Positions 1-24,542 of a stretch of DNA of 64,000 bases are shown here, piece after piece; positions within the stretch are counted from its first letter, which is position 1, and each line of letters starts with the position of its first letter. A model generated the notes under the pieces. That model was not told the origin of the DNA and did no database searches. It worked only from the letters and a program-made list of their open reading frames with translations. Origin of the DNA: Planctomycetota bacterium (lineage in GTDB: Bacteria; Planctomycetota; UBA1135; GCA-002748355); assembly GCA_027021385.1 (NCBI GenBank), contig JALUUL010000079.1, forward strand, positions 126,329 through 190,328. Direction: 5' to 3'. The translations under genes were made by a program, and so were the position numbers.

Positions 1-649
1 GCCCCGTTCTCCGGACGAAATAGATATGGATCCCGAACAACCCGAGAAAGGCAAGGGGCAGGATCACCACATGCAGGGCGAAGAACCGATGGAGGGTCGG
101 TTCGCCCACGTTGGTTCCGCCTCTCACGAGTTGGACGCATTGTTCCCCGATCAGGGGGATGTCACGCAGGGTTTCGGTTCCGACGGTCGAGCCCCAATAG
201 GAGAGCTGTGTCCAGGGGAGAAGGTATCCGGAGAAGGCGAGGAAGAGGGTCAGCAGGAGGAGGATCATTCCCGTGACCCAGTGGAGTTCCCTGGGGTTCT
301 TGTACTCCGCGAAAAAGAACACCCTGAGGGCATGGAGCATGACGGCTATGATCATCGTCGTCGCGCCGAAGCTGTGCAGGCCGCGGATGAACCAGCCGAA
401 GGGGACTTCCAGGGTGATGCGCTCCACGGAATGGAACGCGCCTGCGGAGGTCGGCACGTAATGGACGAGGAGCAGGATCCCCGTCAGGAGCTGGGAAAGG
501 AAGAAGAGGATCGCGAGTCCTCCCAGGCAGAATGGGAGGCCCGTGGCGCGGGCGGGAATGCCGTAACCGGTCAGGGTCCGCTTGATGAGGTCGCCCAGGC
601 CGATCCTCTCCTCGAGCCAGGAGGCGGTTTTCGGAAAGAGTCCGGACAT
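1..649 (-). CDS. Cytochrome b6-type (cytochrome b N-terminal) subunit of a Rieske/cytb complex, 3'-truncated by the window edge
   Basis: Absent from the ORF track because no stop lies in the window. Manual translation from the ATG at 649 (TGATG overlap with the Rieske stop) gives MSGLFPK...PFCLGG...GWFIRGLHSFGA...MLHALRVF...YKNPRELHWVTG...GYLLPWTQLSYWG...TLHRFFALHVVILP...GIHIYFVRRTG, with four heme-b His ligands. Confidence 0.95.
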   Translation of the reverse strand, partial: MSGLFPKTASWLEERIGLGDLIKRTLTGYGIPARATGLPFCLGGLAILFFLSQLLTGILLLVHYVPTSAGAFHSVERITLEVPFGWFIRGLHSFGATTMIIAVMLHALRVFFFAEYKNPRELHWVTGMILLLLTLFLAFSGYLLPWTQLSYWGSTVGTETLRDIPLIGEQCVQLVRGGTNVGEPTLHRFFALHVVILPLAFLGLFGIHIYFVRRTG

Positions 650-1071
650 CAGGTCTTCTCCCCGAGCTGGATCATTCCCTCCTTGACCCCGACCGGCACC
701 TTCGGGAGGGGTTTTGGGGCGGGTCCTCCCAGGACGGTTCCGTCGAGGGCGAAGGTCGCGTCATGGCACGGACATTCGATCCTTTCCGCGTCCTCGTTCC
801 ATTTCACGAGGCAGCCCAGGTGGGTGCAGACGGCCGTCAGGGCATGGAGTTCTCCTTCGCGGTCCCGGATGATCAGCGTGGGTTTCCCCTTATGGACGAC
901 CTGGACCCCCTGGCCCGGTTTCAAACGCTCGGCGGGGATCTCCACTTCCTCCTCACCGAGCCCCTCGGGGATCGGCGCCAGGTAGTTCGCGGTGATGTAA
1001 CCGCCCGAGGCCAGGGCCGCGAGCCCGCATGCCTGGACGCTGGATACGAGAATGGTTCGGCGGTCGACCAT
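649..1071 (-). CDS. Rieske [2Fe-2S] protein of a Rieske/cytb complex
   Basis: CTHLGC and CPCH boxes, GPAPKPL motif, N-terminal RR plus hydrophobic segment (Tat anchor). Confidence 0.95.
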   Translation of the reverse strand: MVDRRTILVSSVQACGLAALASGGYITANYLAPIPEGLGEEEVEIPAERLKPGQGVQVVHKGKPTLIIRDREGELHALTAVCTHLGCLVKWNEDAERIECPCHDATFALDGTVLGGPAPKPLPKVPVGVKEGMIQLGEKT

Positions 1072-1098
1072 GGTTCGTTTCGTTTTGGCCTCCGGGGA

Positions 1099-1926
1099 TC
1101 AAGTGGTTCCGATCGGCGGTCCCTTGTGGAATACCAAGAACCCGAAGAAGGTGCCTAGGACGAGGAAGCCCATGAGACTCAGGATGAAGGGTACTTCTCT
1201 CGCCTTCTGAACCCTTCTCAGGTTCTCCCGCTCTTCAAGCTTCGTGAAGGTCTTGAGGAGTTGATCGGCGTTCGTGCCGATCTCCTGGATCTTTCCGATC
1301 TGGAAAGAATGGAAGGTTGCGATGACCCCGGCCTGATCCAGGTGGAGTTCCTTCCTTTTGGCGAGGAATGCGGCCTTTGCCACTGGAAGATGTTCGAGAT
1401 CCTCGAGTTTGGACTCCATCCGCTTCTGGAGTGTGTTCGCTTTCTCCAGGGCCTTCAGGGCTTTTTGCGGTGCCTTGAAGTCATGGCACTTCGTGCAGTT
1501 CTTCTCGGTGATGATCTTTTCCGGTTCGGGCTTGGAGATTCCATGATGGCCGTGACAGGAGATGCAGTTGGGGAGGCCATGCGAACCGTGCGGACTCCCC
1601 AGGTGTTTCTCCTTGATCTCTCCGTGACACTTTCCGCAAAAGTAGGGCACATCGTGCATCCTCGGGATGCCGACGTATCCGGTTCCCGGGCTCTTGGGAT
1701 AGCGATCGCTCTCTTTGTCCCCTCCGTGACAGTCGACGCACCCGATCTTCTGCTCGAAGTGGGTCGAACCCCGCCAATCGGAGACGGCGCGTTTCAACGC
1801 ACCGGAGAGCCGGGAATGGCATTCGAGGCAAGAGTCCTTCCCCCCGGGATTCTGGGCGTGGCTGTTCCCCCCGAGGAATCCGAACGCCGCGAGGAATCCG
1901 AGTGCGAGACGGGGAATCCCCTTCAC
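1099..1926 (-). CDS. Membrane-anchored pentaheme cytochrome c (cytochrome subunit of the Rieske/cytb module)
   Basis: 5 CxxCH (CLECH, CVDCH, CGKCH, CISCH, CTKCH), signal peptide, helical stalk and C-terminal TM helix. Start reassigned to GTG 1926 (GTGA overlap with the upstream stop). Confidence 0.9.
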   Translation of the reverse strand: MKGIPRLALGFLAAFGFLGGNSHAQNPGGKDSCLECHSRLSGALKRAVSDWRGSTHFEQKIGCVDCHGGDKESDRYPKSPGTGYVGIPRMHDVPYFCGKCHGEIKEKHLGSPHGSHGLPNCISCHGHHGISKPEPEKIITEKNCTKCHDFKAPQKALKALEKANTLQKRMESKLEDLEHLPVAKAAFLAKRKELHLDQAGVIATFHSFQIGKIQEIGTNADQLLKTFTKLEERENLRRVQKAREVPFILSLMGFLVLGTFFGFLVFHKGPPIGTT

Positions 1927-2930
1927 TTGAGGGCTCCCTGAAGATCCTGGAGAGCCTTCCTGTAGGCGGCGGCGGCGGCCTTGAAGTCCTTCTTCATTTC
2001 GAAGGCCAGGCCGCGGAGAAGAGCGATCTCCGGCTTTCTTCCGTCCATCCCCTCCAGTTTCTTCAAGCACTCTTCAGGACGGCCCTCTTCGATCGCGAAT
2101 CTGGCTTCGAGGAGGTGGAGAGTCGGCGTGCCGGGGGCCAGCTCCCGGACGCGGCGGAGCCAGGGTTCCGCTTGTTTCGTCCGTTTCTGGATCAGGAGCA
2201 CCTTCGTCAGCATTGCGGCGGCCTCTACGGAATCCGTGTCTTTCGTGATCACCTTCTCGAGAGAGGAGCGGGCCTGGGTATACATCCCGGCTGCGATCAA
2301 TTGACGGACCATCCGCAGGGTCCGTGCGAGCTTGAGAGCGTTGTGATCGCTCTTGCCGGAACCACTCTTGGTCGTTGCTGCGTAGAAGGCTTTCTCATCG
2401 ATGAGCCCGGCGGCGAGTTTCGCGGCGGCCGTGACCTTCAAGGGGAGGAGAGGTCCGAAACCCTTGTCGATATGGACGATCTTCCGGTTCTTGTCGATGA
2501 CATAGACCGTCGGGAAAGCGACGACCCTGTATCGCGCGAAGTTCTTCCGCTCCGGGTCCACCGTGATGGAGAACGAGAGCCCCGACTGTTCGAGTACCCG
2601 GGTGAGAGTTCCGAGGTCCCTTTTTCCGGAAGTGATCAGGAGAATCGCAGCTTTCCCTCCAAGCTCCTTCTCGGTCGAGAGGTCCTTGATGATCGCTCTG
2701 AGACCGCGTTCCGAATACATGATGTGCTCGGAGTGGAAGATCAGGATGACGGCCATGTTCTCCCACTGATCCCAGGACAGGGATTTGCCGTTGGCGTCCT
2801 TCGCGGTGAAGGGCGGGGCGATCTGCCCTTTCTCGAGGGATTGGCCGGGACAGGGGGCGACCGCCGGTCCTACCAGGATCGTGATCGTGAAAAGGAAGGT
2901 CCGAAGATGCTCGATCTTGAGGGTGCCCAT
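1923..2930 (-). CDS. Secreted redoxin (AhpC/TlpA-like fold) lacking CxxC, fused to TPR repeats
   Basis: GQIAPPFTAKDANG...VILIF...YRVVAFPTVYVIDKNRKI matches the redoxin fold. The active-site position reads HSEHIMYS. TPR-like helices at the C-terminus. Confidence 0.8.
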   Translation of the reverse strand: MGTLKIEHLRTFLFTITILVGPAVAPCPGQSLEKGQIAPPFTAKDANGKSLSWDQWENMAVILIFHSEHIMYSERGLRAIIKDLSTEKELGGKAAILLITSGKRDLGTLTRVLEQSGLSFSITVDPERKNFARYRVVAFPTVYVIDKNRKIVHIDKGFGPLLPLKVTAAAKLAAGLIDEKAFYAATTKSGSGKSDHNALKLARTLRMVRQLIAAGMYTQARSSLEKVITKDTDSVEAAAMLTKVLLIQKRTKQAEPWLRRVRELAPGTPTLHLLEARFAIEEGRPEECLKKLEGMDGRKPEIALLRGLAFEMKKDFKAAAAAYRKALQDLQGALK

Positions 2931-2956
2931 CGCTCGATCCTCTTATTCGGAACTGG

Positions 2957-4411
2957 CTACTTCTCTTTCCCTTTCCGGGAAGGATTGTTCTCTACGGCCT
3001 GAAGGTAGTTGTAGCTCTTTGGCGTGTGGCAGCCGGGGGCGCAGCTTCCCCCGGTCGGAAGCTTCTTGAAATTGATCGGGATCTCCCATCCCCCGAAGGG
3101 AACGCTTTTGGCGATGTGCTTCGGGAGATCGCTGGCGTGGGTGTTATGGCAGGCCCTGCAGGTCCGTCCCTTCGTCTTCTTGTTGACGTGGACGAAGTGG
3201 AGGTTACGGGTGCCGTTCCGGAAGTTCGTCAGGGTCTCGGTCCTGGGTTTGAGGAAGACCTGGGAGTCGTGGCAACTGAAGCAGAGGTTGTAGGTCTTCA
3301 TGTCGAAGGGGGCATAGAATTTCTGAGGGTATTCCTTACGGAGGATCCTGAAATTCTTGGATCCGTGGGGGTTGTGGCAGCTCGAGCAATCTCCCTCGCG
3401 GATCGGCCCATGCAGGAACTTGGATTCGCGGATCTTCTGTCCGATCGCGGCCACGACGGTCTTGTCGGGACGGACCGTCGGCTGGTCATGGCAGCTCAGA
3501 CAAAGGTCGATGACGGGTTTGTCCAGGAGCTTGGGGAATTTCGAGGCGTGGGTGTTGTGGCAGTTCTTGCATCCCTCGTTCGTCGTCAGCGCCTCGTGGA
3601 AGACCGTGGCCCCTTCGATCTCCTCTCTCTTCTCCTTGTGACAATCCAGGCAGAGAGCCTGCCTCTCGTTCTTCAGCTGGAAGGGGTGGTCGCTTGCGTG
3701 GGGGTCATGACATTTCGAACAGTCCTCGCTGACGGGGCGGTGCCAGTATTTTGCCCCTTTCAACTGCTGTTCCATGTCCGTGTGGCAGGAGAGACAGTTC
3801 GCGGAGCCTTTCTTGTTCAGAAGCTTCGGATACCAGGAAGTGTGGGGGTCGTGGCAGAGGGTGCAGGCCCCGGCGGCCACCGGGCCGTGGACGAATTTCT
3901 TCCCCATCCCCTTTCCCTGTTCATGGCACTGAGCGCAGAGCTCCCTCGTCGTCTTCGTTTTCAGAAGGGCTTCGTTTTCCGAATGGTGCGGGTTGTGGCA
4001 GGCAGTGCACATTCCATCCCGAATGGGCTTGTGCACGGTGTCATGGAGTTCCATTTCATGACAGGTCGTGCAGAGCTTCATCGGGTTCTCGATGTTCCGG
4101 AAATCGTGCTTGGTTTCTTCGACTTGCTTGTGGCAGATCCGGCATTTCCCGACCGCAACGGGTCCATGAACGTAGGTCCCTTTGGCCATTCCGGGGTGGC
4201 ATTCCGTCGTCGAGCAACTCTGTCCTTTCTTCAGGGTGGTGGGAGCACGTCCTTGAGTCCCCTGGGGAAGGAGAGGCAGGAGGTGATCCGAAAACCCGAA
4301 GGCCGGGATTCCGCTTTCGACGGCGGGGGAATCCATAGCTCCGAAGGGAAGGGACAGGAAAGGAAGGAGCGCCAACCCGAGGAAAGAGGATTTCCGCGGC
4401 ATCGCCTTCAT
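2957..4411 (-). CDS. Periplasmic ~15-heme cytochrome c (paired-CXXCH repeat type)
   Basis: 13 CxxCH plus CSTTECH and CAPGCH; repeated HGPV..G.C..CH.PH units; signal peptide; GAGGT RBS before ATG 4411. Confidence 0.93.
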   Translation of the reverse strand: MKAMPRKSSFLGLALLPFLSLPFGAMDSPAVESGIPAFGFSDHLLPLLPQGTQGRAPTTLKKGQSCSTTECHPGMAKGTYVHGPVAVGKCRICHKQVEETKHDFRNIENPMKLCTTCHEMELHDTVHKPIRDGMCTACHNPHHSENEALLKTKTTRELCAQCHEQGKGMGKKFVHGPVAAGACTLCHDPHTSWYPKLLNKKGSANCLSCHTDMEQQLKGAKYWHRPVSEDCSKCHDPHASDHPFQLKNERQALCLDCHKEKREEIEGATVFHEALTTNEGCKNCHNTHASKFPKLLDKPVIDLCLSCHDQPTVRPDKTVVAAIGQKIRESKFLHGPIREGDCSSCHNPHGSKNFRILRKEYPQKFYAPFDMKTYNLCFSCHDSQVFLKPRTETLTNFRNGTRNLHFVHVNKKTKGRTCRACHNTHASDLPKHIAKSVPFGGWEIPINFKKLPTGGSCAPGCHTPKSYNYLQAVENNPSRKGKEK

Positions 4412-4760: not shown

Positions 4761-6485
4761 TCAATAGCCCTTTCTATGGTGGTCCTTGCCGTGGCAGAGG
4801 AGGGAGCAGCTTCCTCTCCCCATCCCCATGTCGACGAACTCAAGTTTCCCGTTCATCCTGGAGGGAGTGACGATACTGCTCCGAAAGTTGATCAGATGCG
4901 CGTTGTTCGTGCTGTTTCCCTGGTTCGCGGAGATTCCGTGTGCGTCATGGCAGGTCGCGCAGGGCGCCTTCTCTCCCTGGATGTGTTTTCGGTGCTTCCT
5001 GAAGGACTGGTCCCCCAGAATGGAGGTGCGACTGTGGCATTTGTAGCAGAGGGCGTATTGGGTCGCGGATTCGGTGATGTTGTCCTGCGTGTTATAGTTC
5101 AGGGCCAGGAGGGGGCGGTAATTGGACCCATGAGGTCCCCGAGGTCCGTTCCCTCCGAAATCTGGAGAGCTGTCGCTTTGATGGCAGTCGGTACAGGCCA
5201 TCTTGCTCGAAGTCGTCCAGGGGGGCAGGAGGCTCGGAACGTAGGAGTTCTTTCCCGCGGCCTCGATCGGATGATAGGAGGGGTTCGCCGGGTTGAATTC
5301 GAGGCGGACGTTTGTTTGTTGGATGATCCTCGAAACGTAGGCGGTCCCTCCATTCTTGTCTGCGTGACACTTGTAACAGAGCTGATAGCCGTAGGTGATC
5401 CGCTCGACCTTCTGCCCGGCGTTGTCGAGACCCGAGACTCCGAAGAGGGGGCCGGGCACTCCGGGAGGGGCGGCCGTTCCGGCCTTTGCCGTATGGGGGT
5501 TGTGGCAGTCTTGGCATTCCGCGTGCCTGGACATCGTCAGCGGATCCTCGGTCGGATCGTGGATTCCCTGCCAGCTTGAAGGGTTGTGTGCGGAGACCTT
5601 GGCGAGATCGGTGGTGATGTCCTTGGATGCGACGTTTCCGTTGTGGCATCTCAGGCAGTTCTCCTCCTCGGTGGAGAAGTTGAGGAGTCTGTGAGGTTGT
5701 CCGGCGCTGTGCGGGACATGACAGTTCGCGCAGGCGTTCTCCTGAACGGTCGTATAGGTGGTGTTGGGCCAGGGATCGGGCCCGGTCTGATTCCAGGTGG
5801 CCGAGGAGTTCGCATGCGAAGCGGTGTTCCAGTCTCTCGGGTTGTGGCAGGAGAGGCAGAGAGAACCGTTCTTGTCCGTCGTCTTGAGGAATTTCCCCAG
5901 GGAGTCGTTATGGGCGTCGTGGCATGACGTGCACTGGACGAAGCCGTTGTGGTCGAGACTCACGGGAGGCTTGATGGCCGACCCGATGAAGAAGTCGACC
6001 CCCGTTCCTCCCTTCGAAGTCGAGTAGTCGAAGGAGACGGGGTGATCATCTTGGAGATTGGTCCCAATATTGGCCTTTCCCGAGTTGAGGAACCTGGACC
6101 CGGACATCGTGATTTCAGAAGTGAGGCTCACGACTTTCCCGAGCGCGATCGTTCCATCGTGGCAGGATAGGCAGAGTTTCGTCGATCCGTTGGGCTGGCC
6201 GACGTTCCCCTTCAGGGTCGAGGAAGTATAGGGCAGGTAGGTCTGGGTGCTGTCGTCCCGATTCCATAAGGGGAATTGGGTCCGGGCCCGGTGAGGAGCA
6301 TGGCAGAAGATGCAGATTCTCTCCTCGGAGAGGGCCTTGTAGGTGCCCGGCCCGGAAACGGAGAGGTTGTGCTTCGTGTTCTTGATCGAGGTTCCGCCGC
6401 CTTGCGTGAGCGGAAGGGGGAGGGCCCCGAAGAGCAGTGTCGCCGGGCCGAGGACGACCAAGACTTTGCTGAAAACGGGAATCAT
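4761..6485 (-). CDS. ~12-heme cytochrome c with an N-terminal OmcE-like tetraheme domain
   Basis: 11 CxxCH plus CSLLCH. The N-terminal IKNTKHNLS..ICIFCHAPH..LWNR..Y.SST..KLCLSCHDG..DDHPV..QCTSCHDAH..LCLSCH follows the OmcE motif order. Confidence 0.9.
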   Translation of the reverse strand: MIPVFSKVLVVLGPATLLFGALPLPLTQGGGTSIKNTKHNLSVSGPGTYKALSEERICIFCHAPHRARTQFPLWNRDDSTQTYLPYTSSTLKGNVGQPNGSTKLCLSCHDGTIALGKVVSLTSEITMSGSRFLNSGKANIGTNLQDDHPVSFDYSTSKGGTGVDFFIGSAIKPPVSLDHNGFVQCTSCHDAHNDSLGKFLKTTDKNGSLCLSCHNPRDWNTASHANSSATWNQTGPDPWPNTTYTTVQENACANCHVPHSAGQPHRLLNFSTEEENCLRCHNGNVASKDITTDLAKVSAHNPSSWQGIHDPTEDPLTMSRHAECQDCHNPHTAKAGTAAPPGVPGPLFGVSGLDNAGQKVERITYGYQLCYKCHADKNGGTAYVSRIIQQTNVRLEFNPANPSYHPIEAAGKNSYVPSLLPPWTTSSKMACTDCHQSDSSPDFGGNGPRGPHGSNYRPLLALNYNTQDNITESATQYALCYKCHSRTSILGDQSFRKHRKHIQGEKAPCATCHDAHGISANQGNSTNNAHLINFRSSIVTPSRMNGKLEFVDMGMGRGSCSLLCHGKDHHRKGY

Positions 6486-7519: not shown

Positions 7520-7521
7520 GC

Positions 7522-9468: not shown

Positions 9469-10199
9469 CGATGGCCCCCTCCCTCTCCCGGGCGCCACTT
9501 CGGAGGTCTGGTCTCCATGGATTTCCGGGTTTTGCCCCTGCTTTCCTTCCCCAGGCCGGGAACGACGGTTGCCTTGATCATGTAGCGGCGCTTGGAGGAA
9601 TGGGGGTCATGACATTCCGTGCAGGATCCCTTCTCGAAGGTCTTGTGGCGTTTCCTCGTGACGAAGGTGTCCCCCGTGTGGCACCGCGCGCAGAGGGTGT
9701 CGGGATTCTTGACTTTCAGGAGGTGGGGGTATGAGGACCGGTGGTGCTCATGGCACTGGGCGCACTCGCCGGCGGCCACCGGCCCATGGACGAAGGCTTC
9801 CTCGGGGGGCTTATGGCATTTCTTGCACAGGAGCTTTTTCGGAAGGCGCAGCTCGGACAGACCCTGCCTCCAGGTGGGCTGGGAGTTTCCTCCACGGGGA
9901 GCGGTCGAATGGCAATCCCCGCATCGCTTCTCCTGGAAGGGTTTGTGGAAAAAGACCTCGACCTTCTTCAGCCGCTCCTCCTGGAGCTTGGCCCTCTCCT
10001 CTAGGGTCAGGGACCGGAGTTCAATTCGGGGAACCGGGCCGATGAAGTCGGGTGTTCCGGGAGTCCTGGGATCCGGAACCCCGTCGAAGAAGAAGGACAG
10101 GATCTCATACTTCTTGAGGGCCGTACAGGCAGCCGTCACTCCAAGGGGGCAGAAGGCCAGGAGAAGCAGGAGGGCCGGAGGACTTCGTCGGAGCGACAT
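9465..10199 (-). CDS. Lipoprotein pentaheme cytochrome c (ExtC-like partner of the porin)
   Basis: Lipobox-like VTAAC followed by LSFFFDGVP; 5 CxxCH; translationally coupled to the beta-barrel gene. Confidence 0.88.
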   Translation of the reverse strand: MSLRRSPPALLLLLAFCPLGVTAACTALKKYEILSFFFDGVPDPRTPGTPDFIGPVPRIELRSLTLEERAKLQEERLKKVEVFFHKPFQEKRCGDCHSTAPRGGNSQPTWRQGLSELRLPKKLLCKKCHKPPEEAFVHGPVAAGECAQCHEHHRSSYPHLLKVKNPDTLCARCHTGDTFVTRKRHKTFEKGSCTECHDPHSSKRRYMIKATVVPGLGKESRGKTRKSMETRPPKWRPGEGGGHR

Positions 10200-15499: not shown

Positions 15500-15520
15500 G
15501 CGAGGGATCCCTCGGCTTTC

Positions 15521-18500
15521 TCAAGGAGTGAGTTCCAGCTTGGGGCGGATGGCCGAGCGATATCTGAGATAGGACAGCACGATGACGGCGATCTCGAAGA
15601 TGCAGAAGAGGGCCGCATAGAGCAGTCCTCCTTCCGAGGAGCCGTAGGAATGCAGGCCCGCGGCGAGAACGAAGTTGACCCCGTAATACGTCATGACGAC
15701 GGAGAGGAAGCTGGCGATCGAAGAGACGGCCAGTCCGAAGGGGTGGAGCCAGCCCGCGAAGCGTGCATGCACGATGCCCAGGTAGACGAAGAAGGTGATC
15801 AGGGACCAGGTTTCCTTCGGATCCCAACCCCAGTACCTCCCCCAACTTTCGTTGGCCCAAATGGCGCCGAAGACGATCCCGGCCGCGAGAAAGAGGAGTC
15901 CGACCTGCATCGTCTTGTAGGTGAGGTTCGTGAGGGTCCGGAGCATCTCGGTCCTCCCGGGCCGGAACAACTGGACCCAGATGACGATATGACCGAGTCC
16001 CATGTTCAGGGCGAAGGCGGAATAGGCCAGCATGATCGTCATCACGTGGACCGACAACCAGTAGGTGTGGGCCAGGACGGGCACGAGGGGGTTGATCGAG
16101 GAATCCAGGGGCAGGTGCTCCGAGAAGAGAAGGCAGAGGAAGCCCATCAGGCTTGCAACGAGTCCGAAGAAACGCTTGCGGTAGAGGAACTCGAGGAAGA
16201 GCCCGATCGCGATCGTGCCCCAACCCATGAAAACCAGGGATTCGTACATGTCCGAGACCGGAGCCCTTTCGGCGATTGCCCATCTGAGTCCGATGCCGGT
16301 CGTGTGAGCGGCGAAACCGAGGATCAGGGCCGTCATGCCCGCCCAATATCCCTTCCGGTTCTTGACGAAACCGAAGAAGAGGATCAGCAGGAAGCTCAGC
16401 AGATAGGCCTTCCAGGCCTTCCCGAAGGCCTCGAACTCTTCGTAAAAGATCTCCAGGGATAGGGCTTCCTCCGGAGGGTAGGTCTCGGGGCCCGCTTCCC
16501 GGAGAATTCCCGTCAGTTCTTCGGCGGCCTTGCCGAAGTCCTGTGGATCCTTGTCCCTCCATGCCTTGGACATCCGGATGAAACCGGCAAAGATCCGTTT
16601 TTGCAGGTCCGACTTCGCGTCCTTGAAGTCGTTCGGAGTTTCCCATTTTCCCTGGGAATCCTTGACGGGAACGATACGGAGGGATGTGCCGCGGAGAATC
16701 CCGGAGAGTAGTTCCAGGCGGCGGTAGACCTCGAGGGCGTCCTTCTCGATCTTCGTCAGGTCTTCGTGATTGCGGTCCTTGGTGATCGCGCGACCGGCGA
16801 CCTCTTGGAACCGCGGATGCATCATGAGCCGCAGGAAGGAGAAGCGTTTCTTCCCCTCCTCCAACTCCATCAAGGCCTTGAGTTCCTTACTGTCGATCCG
16901 GATATACGGTCGATTCCGGAAATCCTCCGGGGCGAGGTTGTAGCCCCAGAGCAGTTCGAGAGAGCTCAGGCCGTCGTGCTTCCTATGCCCGGTGATCGCG
17001 GTCGCGAACTCGTTCGCGAAAGTGAGAAGGGGTTTGATTCTTCCCGAGGACTGGATGGCCCAGGCCTTGGTCTTCTCGACCGGCATTCCCGTCGGGCCGC
17101 CTGAGGCCTTCGCGGGCACGGAGGAGAGCAGGACCGCGGCCAGGAACCAGAAACCCGTCAATGCCCCCTTCGTTGCGGTATGACCCATGTTCGTGGCCTC
17201 CTGTGCGGGGTTCTTTTCCATGTTCGTCACCGACTCCTTCCTGTTCATGGGTTCCGGCCCGTCGATCCCGGGCCTCCTCGGTTTTCCGTGTCCGCGCAGA
17301 TACCAGGCGATTCCCAGGATGATCAGAAAGAAACTCGGGTAGACGATCGGGACTCCCGGGTCCTTGGAGACGGAGAGGATCGTCATGTCCGGGCCGCCTC
17401 TCTCCCCGAGCTGGTAACTGCTTTGGAAGAGCCGGAAGCCTCCGTAGTCGAGCGGGCGGTTCATCGAGATCACGGTCTCGATAGGCTCCTCGTCGATCCC
17501 GTGCGGAGTCACCTTGACCTTCGAGGCATAGGTCTTGGGACGCCTCGAACCGGGGTAGAACTCCAGGATGAAGTCCTCGAGTTCGAGACTGAAGGGCAGT
17601 TCCTTCGTCGAGCGTTTATAGGCGAAGAGGAGCGAGCCTCCTTCGAGTCCGATTTCGTCGTCCCAACCCCGGCCGATCCAGAAGGTGTTTTCCTTCCCCT
17701 TCCAGTGGGCCTTCAGTTTCAGGAAGGCGCGATTCGTCTCTTTCCCCTTCTTGGAGGATTCGACCCGGACCTCGGCCTTGGCGCTCTTCACGAACCGTTC
17801 GAGTTTGAAATCCAATCCGAGGTTTCCGACTGCGATTGTCTGCCCCTCGATGATTTCGAGGGCGGGCCCCCGCCCGATCGAGGCCGAGAGTTGGATCCAG
17901 AACCTCTTGCCTCCGTCATGGAGGATCGAGACCAAGGGCTTCTTGCCGGCGGAATTCGCCTCGAGGCGGATCCTTTGAACGAGGGGGGCTCCCTTCTGGC
18001 CCCGGATCGAGTTGAAGGTAGGGAAATTGGCGAAGACCTTGTGGATCTCTGTGTGGCTCTTCCCCCGGACCTCGACGACGGCGGCGGGATTACTGCCCGA
18101 TCCGGGGACGTTGCGCAGCTTGCCCTGGACGATCTTGGCTTCAGGCATGAAGGACAGGACCTTCACCGAGATTCCTTCCCCGGCCTGGACGACCTTCCCG
18201 AGAGAAGCGGGAAGGGGGAGGTCCAGGGGGGAACCTTTCTCGGACACGAGGACACGGATGCTGGAGCCACCGGTCTTTCGCTCGGGGAGACGGCCTTTCA
18301 AGGCTTCCGGGTCCCGGATCACGAGGAACTCGATCTCGACCGGGCCGACGTCCTTCCTGCGGAAGTCGGCATGGTCGGCGATCAGCCATTGCCTGCCCTC
18401 GACACCCATCCCGGAGAGCTGGAACTGGATGCCTGGGCTCCCCTCCACCCCGGCGTCCGTAAGGTGGACGTAAGGGGTCCCATCCTCGAGGAAGCGTTCG

Positions 18501-19024
18501 ATCGAGAGGCCGGGATGCCCTTCCTCCTCCTCGAGGAGGGTGATCCCCGCGAGTCGCACGGTGTCGGGGAGTTCGAGGATCTCGTGGTAGGGCTTTCCTT
18601 TCAGGGGCTTCCAGCGTAGATCGAGGTGGCTGCGATCCAGGAAGAGGGTCCTCGATTCGGTTCCCTCCTGCACGGCCATCCGCCCCTCGTATCCGAAGGT
18701 CCGGGACACCCAACCTCCGAAGAGGAGCAGGACGATCGAGAAGTGGGTGAGGACGAAGGCCCACTGATGCCGTTTGATCGGGATCCGGTTGATGACCGCC
18801 ACGATCAAGTTGACGGCGATCAGGAAGAGGAAGAGATCGAACCAGGCCGTCCGGTAGACCCAGGATTGGGCGAAGGCCCTTGAGGTCGAGGATTCGATCA
18901 GGGTCCCGACGATCATCGCGACCACCCCGAAGATGAGCAGGACCATCGTGAACTGGACCTTGCCCAGGAAGCGGAGGAAGCGGAGGGCCGCGGGTTCTGT
19001 CTTCGTGCTCATGCGGGCGTCCAT
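15521..19024 (-). CDS. ccsBA: Fused System II cytochrome c synthase (ResB/CcsB plus CcsA/ResC)
   Basis: N-terminal ResB-like TMs (GTLIES, LTHFS, ISMNRPL..GGFRLFQSSY) and C-terminal WWD domain GAIWANESWGRYWGWDPKETW, GLHSYG. Start could be 19012, 19024 or 19033. Confidence 0.95.
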   Translation of the reverse strand: MDARMSTKTEPAALRFLRFLGKVQFTMVLLIFGVVAMIVGTLIESSTSRAFAQSWVYRTAWFDLFLFLIAVNLIVAVINRIPIKRHQWAFVLTHFSIVLLLFGGWVSRTFGYEGRMAVQEGTESRTLFLDRSHLDLRWKPLKGKPYHEILELPDTVRLAGITLLEEEEGHPGLSIERFLEDGTPYVHLTDAGVEGSPGIQFQLSGMGVEGRQWLIADHADFRRKDVGPVEIEFLVIRDPEALKGRLPERKTGGSSIRVLVSEKGSPLDLPLPASLGKVVQAGEGISVKVLSFMPEAKIVQGKLRNVPGSGSNPAAVVEVRGKSHTEIHKVFANFPTFNSIRGQKGAPLVQRIRLEANSAGKKPLVSILHDGGKRFWIQLSASIGRGPALEIIEGQTIAVGNLGLDFKLERFVKSAKAEVRVESSKKGKETNRAFLKLKAHWKGKENTFWIGRGWDDEIGLEGGSLLFAYKRSTKELPFSLELEDFILEFYPGSRRPKTYASKVKVTPHGIDEEPIETVISMNRPLDYGGFRLFQSSYQLGERGGPDMTILSVSKDPGVPIVYPSFFLIILGIAWYLRGHGKPRRPGIDGPEPMNRKESVTNMEKNPAQEATNMGHTATKGALTGFWFLAAVLLSSVPAKASGGPTGMPVEKTKAWAIQSSGRIKPLLTFANEFATAITGHRKHDGLSSLELLWGYNLAPEDFRNRPYIRIDSKELKALMELEEGKKRFSFLRLMMHPRFQEVAGRAITKDRNHEDLTKIEKDALEVYRRLELLSGILRGTSLRIVPVKDSQGKWETPNDFKDAKSDLQKRIFAGFIRMSKAWRDKDPQDFGKAAEELTGILREAGPETYPPEEALSLEIFYEEFEAFGKAWKAYLLSFLLILFFGFVKNRKGYWAGMTALILGFAAHTTGIGLRWAIAERAPVSDMYESLVFMGWGTIAIGLFLEFLYRKRFFGLVASLMGFLCLLFSEHLPLDSSINPLVPVLAHTYWLSVHVMTIMLAYSAFALNMGLGHIVIWVQLFRPGRTEMLRTLTNLTYKTMQVGLLFLAAGIVFGAIWANESWGRYWGWDPKETWSLITFFVYLGIVHARFAGWLHPFGLAVSSIASFLSVVMTYYGVNFVLAAGLHSYGSSEGGLLYAALFCIFEIAVIVLSYLRYRSAIRPKLELTP

Positions 19025-19153
19025 CCCGGTCAACCGGGTACGGAGGAAGGCTCGGTCCGCCCTTCCCCGGGAGGCTTCCCCCCCCCGGGAGGTCCGGCGG
19101 TCATTCGGGTCCGAGGGAACCCGAGCGGAACGATGTCGGCGACGCGGAGGTAG

Positions 19154-19170
19154 TGCAAGGCACGTGCCGG
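19154..19170 (-). promoter_or_regulatory. Sigma54 -24/-12 promoter for ccsBA
   Basis: Minus strand CCGGCACGTGCCTTGCA, a near-perfect match to TGGCACGNNNNTTGCW. Confidence 0.82.
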
Positions 19171-19431: not shown

Positions 19432-19447
19432 TGGCCTGCTTGTTGCT
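19432..19447 (+). promoter_or_regulatory. Sigma54 -24/-12 promoter for the omcE-like gene
   Basis: TGGCCTGCTTGTTGCT (GG-N10-GC), about 120 bp upstream of the start. Confidence 0.75.
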
Positions 19448-19567
19448 CTTCTCCCGGTCGCTCACCTCGGAGGCGGCTCCGAGGAGCCCGCCTAGGGGCG
19501 GGAAGACGAGAAACTGAAAACCGTTCGTTGGACACCTTCCCTGCCACAGATGGAAAGGATGAAAGTC

Positions 19568-20251
19568 ATGAAACTAACCGCCGGACTCCTGTCCTTGGGT
19601 TGCCTGATCGCGCTGAGCGCCCCCGCTTCTGCGCAGATCAAGAACTCCACCCACGACTTCAGCACGAAGACCTGGAACTTCCGTGCGGAAATTTGCCGGG
19701 TCTGCCACGTTCCTCACGACCATGACTACACCACCAAGCGCGGCCTTGTCTCAGGTCTGTTGTGGAACCACGCGCTCTCCAGCGCGACCTACACGATGTA
19801 TACCAGCCCCTCCCTGGATGGAGCCATCGACTCCGCGCCGACCGGGACCTCGAAGCTCTGCCTCGGCTGCCATGACGGCACTGTCGCCCTCGACGCCTTC
19901 GACAAGAACCCGGACAACTGGGTCGGCAGCTACCTCGGCGGCAGCGCCCGGGTGCCGGGGAGCAACTACTGGAGCGGCAGCACCGGCGACTTGAGGGCCA
20001 CGCACCCGATCTCCATCGTCTACGACGAGACGAAGGACAAGGGGCTGGCACCGAAGACCACGACCTTCGGCGGCTCCGGGACGATCGCGGACGTCCTCGA
20101 GGGTGGGACCAAGGTCCAGTGCTCGACCTGCCACGATGTCCACAACGAAGCGGGCGAGGCCGTTCCCGGCACCCACCTGCTCCGCATCGCCCAGACCACG
20201 GCACAGGGCGGCACGGCTTCCGGGCTCTGCCTCACCTGCCACGTGAAGTAA
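19568..20251 (+). CDS. OmcE-like tetraheme cytochrome c (candidate nanowire subunit)
   Basis: Signal peptide ending ASA-Q. The mature chain IKNSTHDFS..ICRVCHVPH..LWNH..YTMYTS..SKLCLGCHDG..DL..THPI..VQCSTCHDVH..LLR..LCLTCHVK has the same motif order and similar length as Geobacter OmcE. GAAAGGA RBS; alternative starts 19550/19559. Confidence 0.88.
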   Translation: MKLTAGLLSLGCLIALSAPASAQIKNSTHDFSTKTWNFRAEICRVCHVPHDHDYTTKRGLVSGLLWNHALSSATYTMYTSPSLDGAIDSAPTGTSKLCLGCHDGTVALDAFDKNPDNWVGSYLGGSARVPGSNYWSGSTGDLRATHPISIVYDETKDKGLAPKTTTFGGSGTIADVLEGGTKVQCSTCHDVHNEAGEAVPGTHLLRIAQTTAQGGTASGLCLTCHVK

Positions 20252-20460: not shown

Positions 20461-21690
20461 ATGAACCCTTCCTTCCAAGCCAGCATGCGCCGGTTTTCGA
20501 GAGCCTGTCGGTTCTCCCTCAGCTGCAGCGTCATCTTCCTCCTCGGATCCTGCGCCTCCGCGGGTTCGAGGGAGGGGGAGCAGGAGAAGGTCTTCTACCC
20601 CGAACCGCCCGATCCTCCGAGGATCCAGTTCCTGATGGCGATCGCCGACGGTGAAGACCTGGAGGGAGGACCCTCCGGTCTGGACAGCCTCCTCTTCGGC
20701 GGGAAGAAGAAAGGAGGCAAGCCCCTACTGCGGCCCTTCGGGGTGACCTTCCATGAGGGAAAGGCCTACATCACGGACACCCGTCTCGGAGTCGTGATCA
20801 TCGCCGACCTCGAGAAGAAGAAGGTGGACCTCGCTCCCGTCAAAGGAAGAGGGCGGACGATGAAGCCGATGGCCGTCGAAGTACTCGAGGACGGTCGGAT
20901 CCTCGTTGCGGACGCCGGCAGGCGCCAGATCGTCTTCTACGACCGGAACTGGAAGTACCAGGCGGAATGGGGTCCCTTCGGCAAGGGGAGCGTCCCCGTC
21001 GACGTGAAGGTCAAGGGGAACCGGGTCTACGTCGTCGACGGGAACCGGAAGGGGGGAAGCCTCCGTGTGCTGGACCTGAAAACGGGGAAGGAACTGTTCG
21101 TTCTGGGGAAGAAGGAGACCCGGGCCGAATTCCTCCGGGGTCCGACGAGCGTAGCAGTCGATGACAAGGGATTCATCTACGTCGTCGACACGATCTACTG
21201 CCAGGTCTACGTCTGGGACAAGGACGGAAATTTCGTCCGCCACATCGGAGAACCGGGGGACATGGCGGGGCAGTTCGGGCGCCCCAAGGGGATCGGGGTC
21301 AGCGAGAACCTCCTCTTCGTCCTGGACACAGCCTTCGAGAACTGTCAGCTCTTCGATCTGGACGGGCGGATCCTGATGTTCTTCGGTGGGCCGGGGACGG
21401 GTCCCGGTCAGATGTACATGCCCGCGAAGATCTGGGTCGGGGACGAGGGTCTCGAATACTTCAAGGACAGGATCGATCCGGATTTCAAAGCCGAACATCT
21501 GATCCTCGTGACGAACCAGTTCGGCCCGAACAAGCTTGCATTCTACGCGTTGGGTCACCACAAGAAGTTCAAGTATCCGAAGAGCGAGCTACCGGAAGTT
21601 CCCTCCAAGCAGGCCCCCGAGGAAGATCCCGCGAAGAAGGGGCCCGGCGCCCCCCGAAAGGGAGCCGGGTCCGGGGAAATGCTGGACTAG
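20461..21690 (+). CDS. NHL-repeat beta-propeller lipoprotein
   Basis: LLGSC lipobox, FYPEPPDPPRIQFL, NHL blades (GPTSVAVDDKGFIYVVD, QFGRPKGIGV). Confidence 0.9.
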   Translation: MNPSFQASMRRFSRACRFSLSCSVIFLLGSCASAGSREGEQEKVFYPEPPDPPRIQFLMAIADGEDLEGGPSGLDSLLFGGKKKGGKPLLRPFGVTFHEGKAYITDTRLGVVIIADLEKKKVDLAPVKGRGRTMKPMAVEVLEDGRILVADAGRRQIVFYDRNWKYQAEWGPFGKGSVPVDVKVKGNRVYVVDGNRKGGSLRVLDLKTGKELFVLGKKETRAEFLRGPTSVAVDDKGFIYVVDTIYCQVYVWDKDGNFVRHIGEPGDMAGQFGRPKGIGVSENLLFVLDTAFENCQLFDLDGRILMFFGGPGTGPGQMYMPAKIWVGDEGLEYFKDRIDPDFKAEHLILVTNQFGPNKLAFYALGHHKKFKYPKSELPEVPSKQAPEEDPAKKGPGAPRKGAGSGEMLD

Positions 21691-21699
21691 GCCGCGAAC

Positions 21700-23154
21700 T
21701 TGACGAACGACGCTCCGCGATCGACCGGGGAAACCGCCGCCTCTCCCTCTTCCACCGAGGAGAAGAAGGTCCTCGGTCCTCTCCTCAGGAAAGGCGAGGC
21801 GGGGGGGCTGCCATCCTCGATGGCCTGGTTGATCCAGTTGCGCTGGATCGCGGTCCTCTGCGTCTCCCTGACCCTCGTCCTGGCTTTCGGACTGGGGGTC
21901 ATCGACCACCTCCTTCCCCCCCTGGGCGTGGTCTTCGGGCTGTCCCTGTTCAACGCGACGCTCTGGGCCGCAGGGAGGAAGCACCTTCCGATCGCCATCC
22001 CGGGGCCTCCCAAGAGCCGATACCGGCGTGTGATCGCCCTGCAGCTCCATGTGGACCTGTTCGCCCTCACGCTCCTGTTGCATTGGTCGGGCGGGGTCGA
22101 GAACCCGTTCTCCCTGTTCTACCTTTTCCACATCGCGATCGGTTCGATCCTCCTGACCACGAGGCAGACCGCCGTGCTCGTCGCCAGCGGTTGCCTGATG
22201 TTCTGTGTCCTGAGCCTCGGGGAATACGGGGGATTCCTGGAACACCATCCGATCAAGCTGATCTCGGGGATCGACGGAGAGGACTCCTCCCTGCTTGCGA
22301 TCTCCCCTTTCTTCGTGCTTGGAAAGGTCTTCGCGACCTGCCTGACGATGGTCGGAGTCGCCTTCTTCCTCCAATCGGTCGTGCGCCGGCAACGGGAAGC
22401 GGAGATCCTCCGCCGGCAGCACGAGAGGATCGCCGTCTCGAGGCAGCGCCTGGCCCGGATCGGCGAGATCTCCGCCGGGCTCGCTCACAGCATCCGCAAT
22501 CCCCTCCATGGCGTCCTCAACTGCCTCGAGATGGTTCCCGAGGAGGCTCTGGATGAGTCTGATCGAGAGAACCTCGCGCTGATGAGGGAGGGTTTGTACC
22601 GGATCCAGGGAGTCACGGACCGCCTCTTGGTCCTGACGCGGGACGCCCCTCTCCGGAGGCAACCGGGCGATCTCATCGACCAGGTTCGGGAGCTGATCCG
22701 TTACGTCGAGCCCCAGGCCGCGAAGGCGGGGATCGAGATTCGGTCCGAACTGGCTCCCGTTCCCTCCCTGATGCTCGATCCGGACCGCATCCACGAGGTC
22801 CTTTTCAATATTCTCGACAACGCCCTCGACGCCTGCCGGGAATCCGGCGGCCGGCGGATCACGATCCGTGGGGGCACGGCGTCAGGGGACGGCGGCAAGG
22901 CCTTCATCGAGATCGAGGACGAGGGGCCGGGCCTCGAGGAGGGCTGGATCGAGAAGATTTTCGACCCCTTTTTCACGACGAAGGCCATCGGAGAGGGAAC
23001 TGGCCTCGGACTTGCAATCGCAAGGAGGGTCGTGGAAGAACATGGAGGCCGGATCCTCGTCCGGAGCAAAAAGGGCAGGGGGTGTTGCTTCAGGGTCGAG
23101 CTTCCTCTCGGGGACCGGCCTCTGGCCCAGGAACTCGAAGGGGAGGACGCATGA
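21700..23154 (+). CDS. Membrane sensor histidine kinase with a RegB-type GGxxNPF motif
   Basis: About 6 TM helices with SGGVENPF; H-box AGLAHSIRNPL; N, G1, F and G2 boxes (NILDNALDA, DEGPG, IFDPFFTTK, GTGLGL). Confidence 0.92.
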   Translation: MTNDAPRSTGETAASPSSTEEKKVLGPLLRKGEAGGLPSSMAWLIQLRWIAVLCVSLTLVLAFGLGVIDHLLPPLGVVFGLSLFNATLWAAGRKHLPIAIPGPPKSRYRRVIALQLHVDLFALTLLLHWSGGVENPFSLFYLFHIAIGSILLTTRQTAVLVASGCLMFCVLSLGEYGGFLEHHPIKLISGIDGEDSSLLAISPFFVLGKVFATCLTMVGVAFFLQSVVRRQREAEILRRQHERIAVSRQRLARIGEISAGLAHSIRNPLHGVLNCLEMVPEEALDESDRENLALMREGLYRIQGVTDRLLVLTRDAPLRRQPGDLIDQVRELIRYVEPQAAKAGIEIRSELAPVPSLMLDPDRIHEVLFNILDNALDACRESGGRRITIRGGTASGDGGKAFIEIEDEGPGLEEGWIEKIFDPFFTTKAIGEGTGLGLAIARRVVEEHGGRILVRSKKGRGCCFRVELPLGDRPLAQELEGEDA

Positions 23155-24542
23155 AGCCGAATCTGCAAGTCCTCGTTGTGGACGACGACCGGATCAGCCG
23201 CCTGACGACTGCGCAGCGATTGCGGAAAGGGGGGTACGGCGCGGATGCCGTCGAGAATCCCTTTCTGGCTCTCCAGAGGCTCGGCGAGGAGCGCTGGGAC
23301 GTCGTGCTCACGGATCTGCGCATGCCTCGCATGTCAGGCATCGAGTTCCTGAAGAAGGTCAAGGAGAAGCATCCGGAAGTCGAAGTCATCTTGATGACGG
23401 CCTTCGCGACGGTCGAGACGGCAGTCGAAGCGATGCAGTCGGGCGCGTCGGACTATCTCGTGAAACCCTTCCGGTTCGAAGAGTTGGATCTACGTCTGAA
23501 GAAACTGCAGGAGCTGAAGGAAGCGCACAAGGAACTCGACCATCTCCATGCGATCCTCGGTGATGCGAAGGGTTTCGGAGGGTTGGTCGGGCATTCCCCC
23601 CTGATCCGTGAGGTCTATGAGAGGATCCAGATCTTCGCGGATCATGACGCTCCGGTCCTGATCACCGGGGAGACCGGGACGGGAAAGGAACTGGTCGCGC
23701 GGGCGCTGCACCAGGGGAGTTCGAGGGCACAAGGCCCCTTCGTGCCGATCGCCTGCGGGACAATCCCTCCGGAACTGGCGGAAAGCGAACTCTTCGGCCA
23801 TGAGAAAGGAGCGTTCACCGGCGCCCACCAGCGCAGGGAGGGAAGCTTCGGGCGGGCGGACGGCGGCACCGTCCTGCTCGACGACATCGATGACCTGCCC
23901 TTGAACATCCAAGTCAAGCTGCTCCGCGTCCTCCAGGAAGGGACCCTGATCCGGGTCGGGGGGACGGAGGAGATCCGGATCGACGTCCGCGTGATCGCGA
24001 CGACGAAGGTGGACCTCGCCGAGGAGGTCGAGCACGGCAGGTTCCGGGACGACCTCTTCTATCGACTGCGGGGCCTGGAGATCCGCCTGCCTCCGCTCCG
24101 AGAGCGGGGGGAGGACGTGCTCCTGCTCGCCAAACACTTCATCGATCTCGTCGCTTCCCGGGAGGGGAAGGAACCGAAGCCCTTGTCCCTCGAGGCCGCC
24201 CGACTGCTCCGGGAATACCACTGGCCCGGCAACGTGCGTGAGTTGCGCCGGGCGATGGAGTCGGCCTTCATCTTGTGCCGGGGCGAGGAGATCCTTCCCG
24301 AGCATTTCCCCGCCTTTCTGCCCCGCCGGAGGGGGGAGCCCGGGAAGGATCTCCAACCTTTCTCCCTCCACCTCGACGGGCTCGAGCGCATCGATTTCAA
24401 CGAGATGGTCCAGACCTTCGAGGATGCGATGATCCTTTGGGCCCTTTCTCAAGCAGGCGGGCAGCAGACGAAGGCGGCGGAACTCCTCGGCCTCCCTCGC
24501 ACGACCTTTCAGAGCAAGCTGAACCGTACCCATCCCGGGTGA
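23151..24542 (+). CDS. Sigma54-dependent response regulator (NtrC/AtoC family)
   Basis: Receiver domain, GETGTGKE Walker A, ESELFGHEKGAFTGA, WPGNVREL, Fis-type HTH; ATGA overlap with the kinase. Confidence 0.95.
   Translation: MKPNLQVLVVDDDRISRLTTAQRLRKGGYGADAVENPFLALQRLGEERWDVVLTDLRMPRMSGIEFLKKVKEKHPEVEVILMTAFATVETAVEAMQSGASDYLVKPFRFEELDLRLKKLQELKEAHKELDHLHAILGDAKGFGGLVGHSPLIREVYERIQIFADHDAPVLITGETGTGKELVARALHQGSSRAQGPFVPIACGTIPPELAESELFGHEKGAFTGAHQRREGSFGRADGGTVLLDDIDDLPLNIQVKLLRVLQEGTLIRVGGTEEIRIDVRVIATTKVDLAEEVEHGRFRDDLFYRLRGLEIRLPPLRERGEDVLLLAKHFIDLVASREGKEPKPLSLEAARLLREYHWPGNVRELRRAMESAFILCRGEEILPEHFPAFLPRRRGEPGKDLQPFSLHLDGLERIDFNEMVQTFEDAMILWALSQAGGQQTKAAELLGLPRTTFQSKLNRTHPG

Follow-up and report, generated by a model that had tools for sequence, protein, structure and literature searches.

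A putatively sigma54-regulated locus of a planctomycete that probably serves extracellular electron transfer through an OmcE-type nanowire cassette

We analysed a 64,000-nucleotide stretch of DNA (the window) from the genome of a Planctomycetota bacterium (assembly GCA_027021385.1). The window is a piece of a 214 kb contig (JALUUL010000079.1), and the genome, of 3.69 Mb, is 93% complete and 1.5% contaminated. The left part of the window carries a dense cluster of multiheme cytochrome genes, which is probably a sigma54-regulated extracellular electron transfer locus that rests on a patchily distributed OmcE-type nanowire cassette, joined by maturation genes and two quinol modules. The core cassette consists of a tetraheme subunit, two NHL beta-propeller lipoproteins (NHL1 and NHL2), a pentaheme lipoprotein, a barrel with 28 predicted strands and a 12-heme protein that contains a fused OmcE domain. 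This core is not new in kind; the additions here are the co-located quinol modules, a fused CcsBA, sigma54-type sites and the 12-heme OmcE-fusion. What makes the locus valuable is that it widens the range of phyla and offers a concrete end-piece candidate for the filament; a 2026 structure paper on OmcE names the export, start, end and wiring to the cell of such nanowires as open questions (PMC13712944; this and the other papers are cited here for the accessible parts of their text).

The locus extends from 400 nt to the left of the window to position 24542 and holds 18 genes in four transcription units. Unit (a), on the minus strand, encodes the pentaheme lipoprotein, the barrel, NHL1, the 12-heme protein, a 15-heme protein, a thioredoxin-fold protein with tetratricopeptide repeats (TlpA/TPR), an anchored pentaheme protein, a Rieske protein and cytochrome b. 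Unit (b), on the plus strand, encodes a hexaheme protein, a peptidyl-prolyl isomerase (PPIase), an anchored nonaheme protein and a NapC-type 15-heme protein; unit (c), on the minus strand, is the fused ccsBA alone, and unit (d), on the plus strand, comprises the tetraheme, NHL2, a kinase and a sigma54 regulator. An earlier note made from this DNA had put the content at eight multiheme cytochromes with about 71 heme motifs in more than 24 kb, and our count agrees: 67 CxxCH and 4 CX3-4CH motifs in eight cytochromes (5, 15, 12, 5, 6, 9, 15 and 4). Counted in six frames, CxxCH occurs 69 times in 1-24542 and nowhere else in the window, against a genome mean of 1.4 per equal length, so the heme-motif density of the locus is far above chance. 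All the parts that the note had listed (barrel with lipoprotein cytochrome, two quinol modules, OmcE-like subunit, two propellers, foldase and two-component system) are present at the coordinates below, and the parts of a quinone-to-surface chain do lie together with maturation and regulatory genes among the 18, as it had claimed. Its inventory was accurate as far as it went, but passed over the OmcE domain of the 12-heme protein; the locus also has the TlpA/TPR gene with no Cys motif and the sigma54-type sites. The cytochrome b gene moreover overruns the left edge of the window, and what it called a heme lyase is indeed a maturation gene, of the fused System II type. The features are as follows.

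1..649, running 400 nt past the left window edge, minus strand: cytochrome b, petB and petD fused, 349 aa (PF00033/PF00032)
649..1071, minus strand: Rieske [2Fe-2S] protein (PF00355)
1099..2070, minus strand: pentaheme cytochrome with C-terminal membrane anchor (heme motifs; true start probably within the open reading frame)
1923..2930, minus strand: thioredoxin-fold (AhpC/TSA) and TPR protein (TlpA/TPR) without CxxC (Cys only at 27 and 288)
2957..4411, minus strand: 15-heme periplasmic doubled-CXXCH cytochrome, MtrA-like (6R2Q chain A, E 6.6e-17)
4761..6485, minus strand: 12-heme cytochrome, N-terminal OmcE domain (about 30-216) plus 8 hemes (11 CxxCH and 1 CX3CH)
6482..7525, minus strand: NHL beta-propeller lipoprotein 1, NHL1 (NHL domain, lipobox-like Cys)
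7522..9468, minus strand: predicted outer-membrane beta-barrel (AF2 model; no Pfam family)
9465..10199, minus strand: pentaheme lipoprotein cytochrome, overlapping the start of the barrel gene (heme motifs, lipid Cys)
10347..10362, minus strand: sigma54-type -24/-12 site upstream of the nine-gene unit from lipoprotein to cytochrome b (pattern match)
10444..11199, plus strand: hexaheme cytochrome, weakly OmcE-related (E 1.5e-5 to the tetraheme)
11294..12373, plus strand: PpiC/SurA-type PPIase (domain match)
12553..13836, plus strand: nonaheme cytochrome with C-terminal membrane anchor (heme motifs)
13838..15499, plus strand: 15-heme NapC/NirT-type membrane cytochrome (PF03264)
15521..19033, minus strand: fused System II cytochrome c synthase CcsBA (ResB and Cytochrom_C_asm (CcsA), WWD motif)
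19154..19169, minus strand: sigma54-type site upstream of ccsBA (pattern match)
19432..19447, plus strand: sigma54-type site upstream of the OmcE-like gene (pattern match)
19550..20251, plus strand: stand-alone OmcE-like tetraheme, candidate filament subunit (9YUQ, E 1.5e-12; 7TFS, E 5.9e-11)
20461..21690, plus strand: NHL beta-propeller lipoprotein 2, NHL2 (NHL domain, lipobox-like Cys)
21700..23154, plus strand: histidine kinase with PilS-like transmembrane domain (PF25323, 28.7 bits against a cut-off of 27; HisKA, HATPase)
23082..24542, likely start 23151, plus strand: NtrC-family sigma54-dependent response regulator (domain matches)

The case for a filament is carried by the stand-alone tetraheme, which is homologous to both solved OmcE filaments and keeps all eight ligand histidines, four in CxxCH motifs and four conserved distal ones. 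Its C-terminus lies two to three residues past heme 4, as in solved OmcE, in 58 of 58 locus copies, and 118 of 120 homologs stop two residues past heme 4, the other two after five. A histidine past the last heme is found in none of the 58 locus tetrahemes and none of the 120 homologs. Each subunit of an OmcS or OmcE filament has one heme that receives a histidine from the neighbouring subunit (PMC12954529, PMC9473688); in OmcS this neighbour-ligated heme is the penultimate one, heme 5, and the hemes stack in sequence order (PMC6584659). The tetraheme also passes the filter that Petersen et al. applied to filament-capable homologs, a nearby barrel and propeller. The hexaheme, weakly related to it, likewise ends in CHVK, two residues after its last CxxCH as in OmcE subunits, and may be a minor filament subunit.

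Judged by gene content, the locus falls within the published definition of an omcE cluster. In the Desulfuromonadia cluster, OmcE stands beside resB/ccsB together with a pair of multiheme cytochromes, a pair of propeller lipoproteins and a large barrel, and the whole sits between purHDE/resB-ccsB and ffh (PMC13712944); the contention of the earlier note that Geobacter spreads such parts over several loci is therefore not supported. Shared with the clusters of G. sulfurreducens (7TFS) and D. soudanensis (9YUQ) are an OmcE-homologous tetraheme that has its four CxxCH motifs and its four distal His, a pair of propeller lipoproteins, a barrel of large size (likened as a class) and adjacent ccs genes, and seven other multiheme cytochromes are present here where at least two are required. 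The differences are the Planctomycetota host, a ninth histidine in the subunit, the presence of a 12-heme OmcE-fusion in the cluster, the inclusion of quinol modules, a PPIase and a sigma54 two-component system, and the lack of glycosylation genes among the 18 annotated.

The 12-heme protein invites a further and more tentative proposal, which we hold to be possible at less than even chances: that it is the end piece of an OmcE nanowire. Its OmcE domain would dock onto the last subunit and offer His65 to that subunit's open penultimate heme, while His569 would close its own chain, much as in a two-domain pilus tip or anchor; an assembly line resembling usher and chaperones would be formed by the barrel with its pair of dedicated propellers, and the arrangement would be common to uncultured bacteria of about nine phyla, planctomycetes included. 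Residues 18-215 match 7TFS with E 1.7e-32, closer than the stand-alone tetraheme does. A model of the protein (pLDDT 80, lower in the OmcE domain) resembles MtrA (Z 9.8), OmcE (Z 9.3, residues 38-215) and OmcS (Z 6.4, residues 219-487). His569, a histidine past the last heme, is invariant: all 57 aligned 12-heme sequences have it, as do all of a further 120 homologs. His65, the putative donor, is kept in every one of these sequences. We take the donor to be the third residue after the first CxxCH, as is OmcS His16, and presume that this carries over to OmcE. With His65 kept and His569 invariant, the protein could lend to a filament yet not be extended itself, an anatomy that fits a one-ended filament cap, tip or anchor. 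Against the cap stands the presence of other invariant histidines (309, 321, 498 and 501) in the same protein, so that conservation alone is no proof of heme ligation. The ninth histidine that most stand-alone tetrahemes have (below) also speaks against it, nine being the number that Petersen et al. assign to an anchor.

Relatives of the 12-heme protein bear on the same proposal. In 11 inspected loci two genes take the place of the single one, the first for a tetraheme and the second for an octaheme that has a signal peptide of its own, and this pattern of fusion and fission suggests, from gene structure, that the OmcE part and the octaheme part bind each other. The equivalent of His259, the would-be donor of the octaheme, is kept in four of the 11 split loci, and in the same four the tetraheme stops two residues past heme 4, the remaining seven having tails of 7-27 residues; three of the four are one family, and the pattern is suggestive and not a test. 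Each OmcE-domain gene adjoins a propeller gene, with NHL1 immediately upstream of the 12-heme gene in all 80 loci and an NHL gene after the tetraheme in 49 of 52. A complex prediction for the barrel (30-648) and the 12-heme protein (222-574), each entered as an alignment, scored 0.01 and 0.00 against a mark of 0.32 and carries no weight for or against binding. As far as the accessible text of PMC13712944 goes, OmcE operons hold no tip candidate, and only an unlinked anchor candidate is described. One genome fits that remark, its 12-heme counterpart lying away from omcE: at locus L175 the C-terminus of omcE is nearly identical to 7TFS and ccs, 9-heme, 8-heme and NHL genes lie nearby, with no 12-heme gene in 20 kb, and a split 12-heme pair stands at a separate locus, L158. 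A literature search that covered few subscription papers found no paper on an OmcE-domain fusion as a cap or on OmcE clusters in Planctomycetota, and the accessible parts of PMC12133095, PMC11475568 and PMC11492766 hold nothing on planctomycetes or a cap. The cassette offers a linked end-piece candidate with testable residues (His65, His259 and His569) and a compact gene set suited to co-expression; if the cap idea is wrong, the locus would still be a tidy example, though an ordinary one, of the multiheme/barrel clusters, a class that is widespread. As a separate observation, L158, L159 and L161-L165 show a variant that has no barrel in the fetched stretches and consists of an NHL gene, a long-tailed tetraheme, an octaheme lacking the donor His, often a triheme (uet-like) and, in two, a PPIase.

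With the 12-heme protein as query, 361 of 450 candidates in a species-genome collection were confirmed as relatives; locus counts refer to the best 80, and synteny counts, taken within 10 kb, are lower bounds, many contigs ending early. By hand count of record titles, the 80 loci are labelled Planctomycetota (35), Pseudomonadota (16), Nitrospirota (9), Bacteroidota/Ignavibacteria (8), Acidobacteriota (4), Verrucomicrobiota and kin (4), and Myxococcota, Thermodesulfobacteriota, Calditrichota and unnamed (one each). All 80 have NHL1 as a neighbour, whereas 60 have the barrel, 53 the tetraheme, 52 NHL2, 43 a 15-heme-like protein, 41 the lipoprotein, 15 CcsBA and 6 the PPIase. The cassette is patchy, being full-length in 5 of 40 relatives. 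Among 301 sampled genomes of the host phylum 14 match, seven of them full-length including the host (only four candidates were scored per genome), and the phylum to which the Thermodesulfobacteriota-labelled genome belongs has 35 matches at E 0.001 among 201, eight of them below 1e-100; the three loci inspected there (L170, L172 and L173) carry the same cassette. Records from about nine phyla thus rule out a locus unique to the host genome, and its rarity had been overstated, since the same gene classes occur in the uet cluster and the same cassette in many phyla. The earlier note was right that the lineage is not one known for cytochrome nanowires: the accessible text of PMC13712944 lists five phyla for OmcE homologs, Planctomycetota not among them, along with 5-heme variants in diverse uncultured phyla. 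Iron-reduction genes are reported in four Planctomycetota metagenome-assembled genomes (PMC10732223), and the data of that study may already list parts of the cassette; several named loci here bear OFTM-series isolate names as used there. If the nanowire reading is true, OmcE-type wires extend to Planctomycetota, Bacteroidota, Acidobacteriota, Verrucomicrobiota and others, with consequences for the question of which organisms cycle metals in sediments.

The AF2 model of the barrel (pLDDT 90.4) has 28 strands by our count and a beta-sandwich of about 80 residues inserted after strand 17, which would lie on the outer side if strand 1 begins in the periplasm. Its fold is nearest MtrB (Z 20.3, rmsd 8.1, 394 aligned residues), followed by TonB-dependent receptors (at most 17.6) and PapC (14.9); Foldseek returned generic barrels only, with TM up to about 0.4, a profile of the barrel matched no PDB sequence, and PF11854, the MtrB/PioB family, matched neither the barrel nor anything in the host genome. 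In the Atlas the barrel falls in unnamed clusters dominated by Planctomycetota, Pseudomonadota, Bacteroidota and Thermodesulfobacteriota. The lipid Cys25 of the pentaheme lipoprotein is invariant (35 of 35), and the MtrA-like 15-heme protein scores 148 bits against TIGR03508 (DmsE family), below the cut-off of 192.2. With MtrCAB (6R2Q) the locus shares the nearest barrel fold and an MtrA homolog; it differs in having 28 strands instead of 26, the inserted beta-sandwich, no PF11854 match and no MtrC.

Similar by gene class only is the uet cluster (uetA-J with ccsAB and nrfG) of Tenderiales and Gallionella, with which the locus shares a tetraheme, a PPIase, two NHL proteins, CcsAB and a TPR protein. 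UetC is also predicted at 28 strands (10.1101/2022.05.06.490989), and in both clusters a doubled-CXXCH protein of 11-12 motifs comes right after an NHL gene, UetJ with 11 CXXCH and the protein here with 11 CxxCH and 1 CX3CH, a likeness of motif count only. The uet authors considered that UetA or UetJ might polymerise, and neither their preprint nor PMC10734462 mentions an OmcE domain in the accessible text. The c7 trihemes, cupredoxin (UetF) and BatABD of uet are not among the 18 genes here, the gene order is another, and the locus has the 15-heme MtrA-like protein, the pentaheme lipoprotein and the quinol modules instead. No Tenderia-named protein was among the 120 matches listed in either of two homolog searches, most of the listed matches being unnamed. 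The locus, which would work like an envelope-spanning system of the omcE/uet type, is a member neither of MtrCAB nor, in the strict sense, of uet. By description only, it also resembles three other large multiheme clusters that include putative extracellular or filament cytochromes: OetABI/OmcX of ANME partner bacteria (PMC10553843), which has a porin; DFE_448-465 of D. ferrophilus (PMC5815863), which has NHL propellers and was described without a barrel; and occA-S (10.1101/695007), which has NHL propellers and in which OccP has 922 aa against 574 aa here.

Maturation and regulation are encoded in the locus itself. The CcsBA gene is one of two PF01578 genes in the host genome. Matches to the sigma54-type pattern YGGCMY-N5-TTGCW number four in the window, where shuffled sequence would give 0.22 (a count of four was never reached in 100 shuffles), and 29 in the whole genome. 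All four sites in the window are inside the locus, one within the kinase gene and the others before unit (a), ccsBA and the tetraheme, so that three of the four transcription units are preceded by one. Related tetraheme genes have such a site upstream in 10 of 56 cases (0.006 expected per segment). Two host genes score above the cut-off for rpoN, which encodes sigma54 (C70:17168-18544 and C14:95464-96729), and the regulator encoded in the locus would drive the sites. Scans for sigma70 promoters and for terminators stayed at chance level.

Two modules would connect the locus to the quinone pool. Cytochrome b has PEWY at 277 and a b6-type Cys41; its best NCBIfam match, and that of the Rieske/cytochrome b pair within the Cbc6/ExtMNOPQ group, is ExtP (212.6 bits against a cut-off of 290), with ExtN, ExtO and ExtM at about 20 bits, all of them below cut-off. 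High-potential Rieske proteins carry Ser/Tyr, which the CPCHDATF box of the Rieske protein lacks, suggesting that it is of the menaquinol type. The anchored pentaheme, related to the nonaheme at 12553 (E 2.7e-14), is likely the partner of the Rieske/cytochrome b pair. The second module centres on the NapC-type 15-heme protein, which matches NrfH 2J7A with E 0.0021 and whose K93/Q99/Y108 have the spacing of ImcH K173/Q179/Y188 (compared by spacing, with no ImcH alignment); it differs from ImcH, which has three transmembrane helices and seven hemes (five to nine in homologs), in having one helix, 15 motifs and CxxCHxM at heme 1. Nearby quinol-linked modules in relatives include an Fe-S protein with a 7-transmembrane protein (L016), a 19-heme cytochrome b561 fusion (L098) and Rieske/cytochrome b (L025 and L062); the link to the quinone pool recurs, its parts being interchangeable among relatives.

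In the arrangement that we favour, menaquinol would be oxidised by one of two routes, the first made up of Rieske/cytochrome b and the anchored pentaheme, the second of the ImcH-like 15-heme protein and the anchored nonaheme. The MtrA-like 15-heme rod would then carry the electrons through the periplasm; by way of the barrel they would traverse the outer membrane and enter a head-to-tail tetraheme filament in which each subunit would lend one histidine to its neighbour's open heme, as has been shown for Geobacter and Desulfuromonas OmcE, where filaments of this type have a rise of 31-34 A (PMC13712944, PMC12954529). The 12-heme protein would most likely close one end of the filament, and the adjacent propeller would be the assembly partner of each OmcE-domain protein.

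Several findings weigh against this arrangement. The tetraheme shares only about 30% of its residues with solved OmcE, and tetrahemes of the OmcE kind have a wide distribution (PMC13712944). A ninth conserved histidine (His74) is present in 86% of the 58 stand-alone locus tetrahemes, 47 of the 58 being listed with it in the form LWNH, the same position being Arg in 7TFS, 9YUQ and the 12-heme protein; a count of nine is what Petersen et al. predicted for a non-extending anchor (PMC13712944), so the tetraheme may not polymerise. The barrel is closest to a conduit, MtrB, rather than to the usher PapC. The sigma54 pattern was fixed after two of its sites had been spotted by eye, the one at 10347 emerging later. 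Nor are the quinol modules conserved with the core, Rieske being found within 10 kb in 2, cytochrome b in 3 and the NapC-type protein in 2 of the 80 loci.

Some of these points would be equally at home in a porin-cytochrome conduit without a filament, in which the barrel holds either the MtrA-like cytochrome or the lipoprotein one, while the tetraheme, the hexaheme and the 12-heme protein would each sit at the surface as a monomer, in line with the Uet model (10.1101/2022.05.06.490989). MtrB as the top fold of the barrel and the MtrA-like 15-heme protein suit such a conduit, the 12-heme model fits MtrA as well as it does OmcE, and the ninth histidine of the tetraheme could satisfy the open heme. 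However, His74 lies between hemes 1 and 2, and heme 5 of OmcS leads one to expect, by analogy, that the penultimate heme is the open one; the tetraheme also has a sigma54-type site and a propeller gene of its own, and a C-terminus trimmed exactly as in polymerising OmcE. We therefore regard a conduit without a filament as unlikely and retain the OmcE-type filament as the better account of the locus.

The usual flow along such a filament is probably outward, to minerals or partner cells. RuBisCO, CdhC and NiFe hydrogenase were not found in the 93% complete genome with the queries used, which did not extend to the reductive tricarboxylic acid and 3-hydroxypropionate routes of carbon fixation, yet aa3-like and cbb3 oxidases, a NorB-like enzyme and an ArrA-like molybdoenzyme are encoded, which makes this direction the likelier one. 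Against it, the uet and D. ferrophilus clusters, which are similar, are tied to electron uptake (10.1101/2022.05.06.490989, PMC5815863). In an inward use, Fe(II) minerals, sulfides or partner cells would supply electrons, as an additional source of energy, to the quinone pool or to the cbb3/aa3 oxidases. A cathode electroautotroph expresses the uet cluster, which is also present in Gallionella (10.1101/2022.05.06.490989, PMC10734462), the host has both oxidases and a QrcB/C-like alternative-complex gene, and a 12-heme homolog is found in Thiohalobacter sp. IOR34. In contrast, RuBisCO and CdhC are among the enzymes not found, proteins of the ImcH type are said to recycle menaquinol when electrons are sent outward (ImcH preprint), and the solved OmcE filaments come from metal reducers; we consider inward use improbable, a shade more so than a filament-free conduit. 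A periplasmic heme capacitor or an adhesion or biofilm structure with no net respiratory transfer outside would accord with the many hemes, with the link of NHL proteins to adhesion (10.1101/2022.05.06.490989) and of OmcE bundles to biofilm formation (PMC13712944), but we hold it to be very unlikely, as differing quinol-interacting modules are repeatedly co-located with an MtrB-like barrel.

The host is a member of Planctomycetota, as the earlier note had supposed in calling it planctomycete-like and not Geobacter. Its RpoB is 84%, 74% and 72% identical to those of Planctomycetota-labelled genomes and 50-59% to those of other phyla, and in a tree of 27 rows it stands in a 100/100 group with all 14 Planctomycetota-labelled rows, apart from 12 of other phyla and outside a Phycisphaerae-labelled subgroup. 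This single-gene sampling drew on 24 genomes, two of which gave no match, with one fragmentary locus omitted, and included no named Planctomycetia or anammox reference; the assembly contains no 16S rRNA. A Desulfobacterota host, which the note had named as grounds for giving up its claim, is ruled out by this placement. In the same tree the RpoB of a genome labelled Candidatus Acidoferrum (L089 / L189) groups with Verrucomicrobiota at 100/100, and its label may be wrong or the bin mixed. The oxidases, the NorB-like enzyme, ArrA-like and nitrate-reductase-like molybdoenzymes and the QrcB/C-like protein suggest a flexible heterotrophic, facultative respirer.

One DNA sequencing run, labelled as a hydrothermal vent metagenome, holds contigs of the locus that cover 1-16330 and 16314-20000 with no differing letters and even depth; it is possibly the source run, so it is not independent support, and no RNA run holding the locus was listed in the sequencing-run search. 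The locus has a GC content of 61.5% against 66.8% genome-wide, and a tRNA-Val(GAC) lies at 24787-24863 on the minus strand with its 3' end pointing to the locus. Despite both, a recent insertion is not supported, because a search of the contig turned up no att-like repeat and neighbouring stretches are likewise GC-poor.

Elsewhere in the host genome, contig C8 (L119:4626-8601) encodes a DmsE-family cytochrome with 18 hemes that scores above the TIGR03508 cut-off, and after it comes a 759-aa protein with three hemes and of no Pfam family; the pair may be a second, fused porin-cytochrome conduit, although PF11854 matches nothing in the genome. On contig C73 (L120:4432-9116) one operon holds an octaheme HAO-like cytochrome, NrfD, a protein with a TAT-like start and a tetraheme, and on contig C37 (L116:595-4149) the ArrA-like respiratory arsenate reductase (1170 bits, cut-off 1600) stands between an Fe-S-like gene and a membrane-protein gene.

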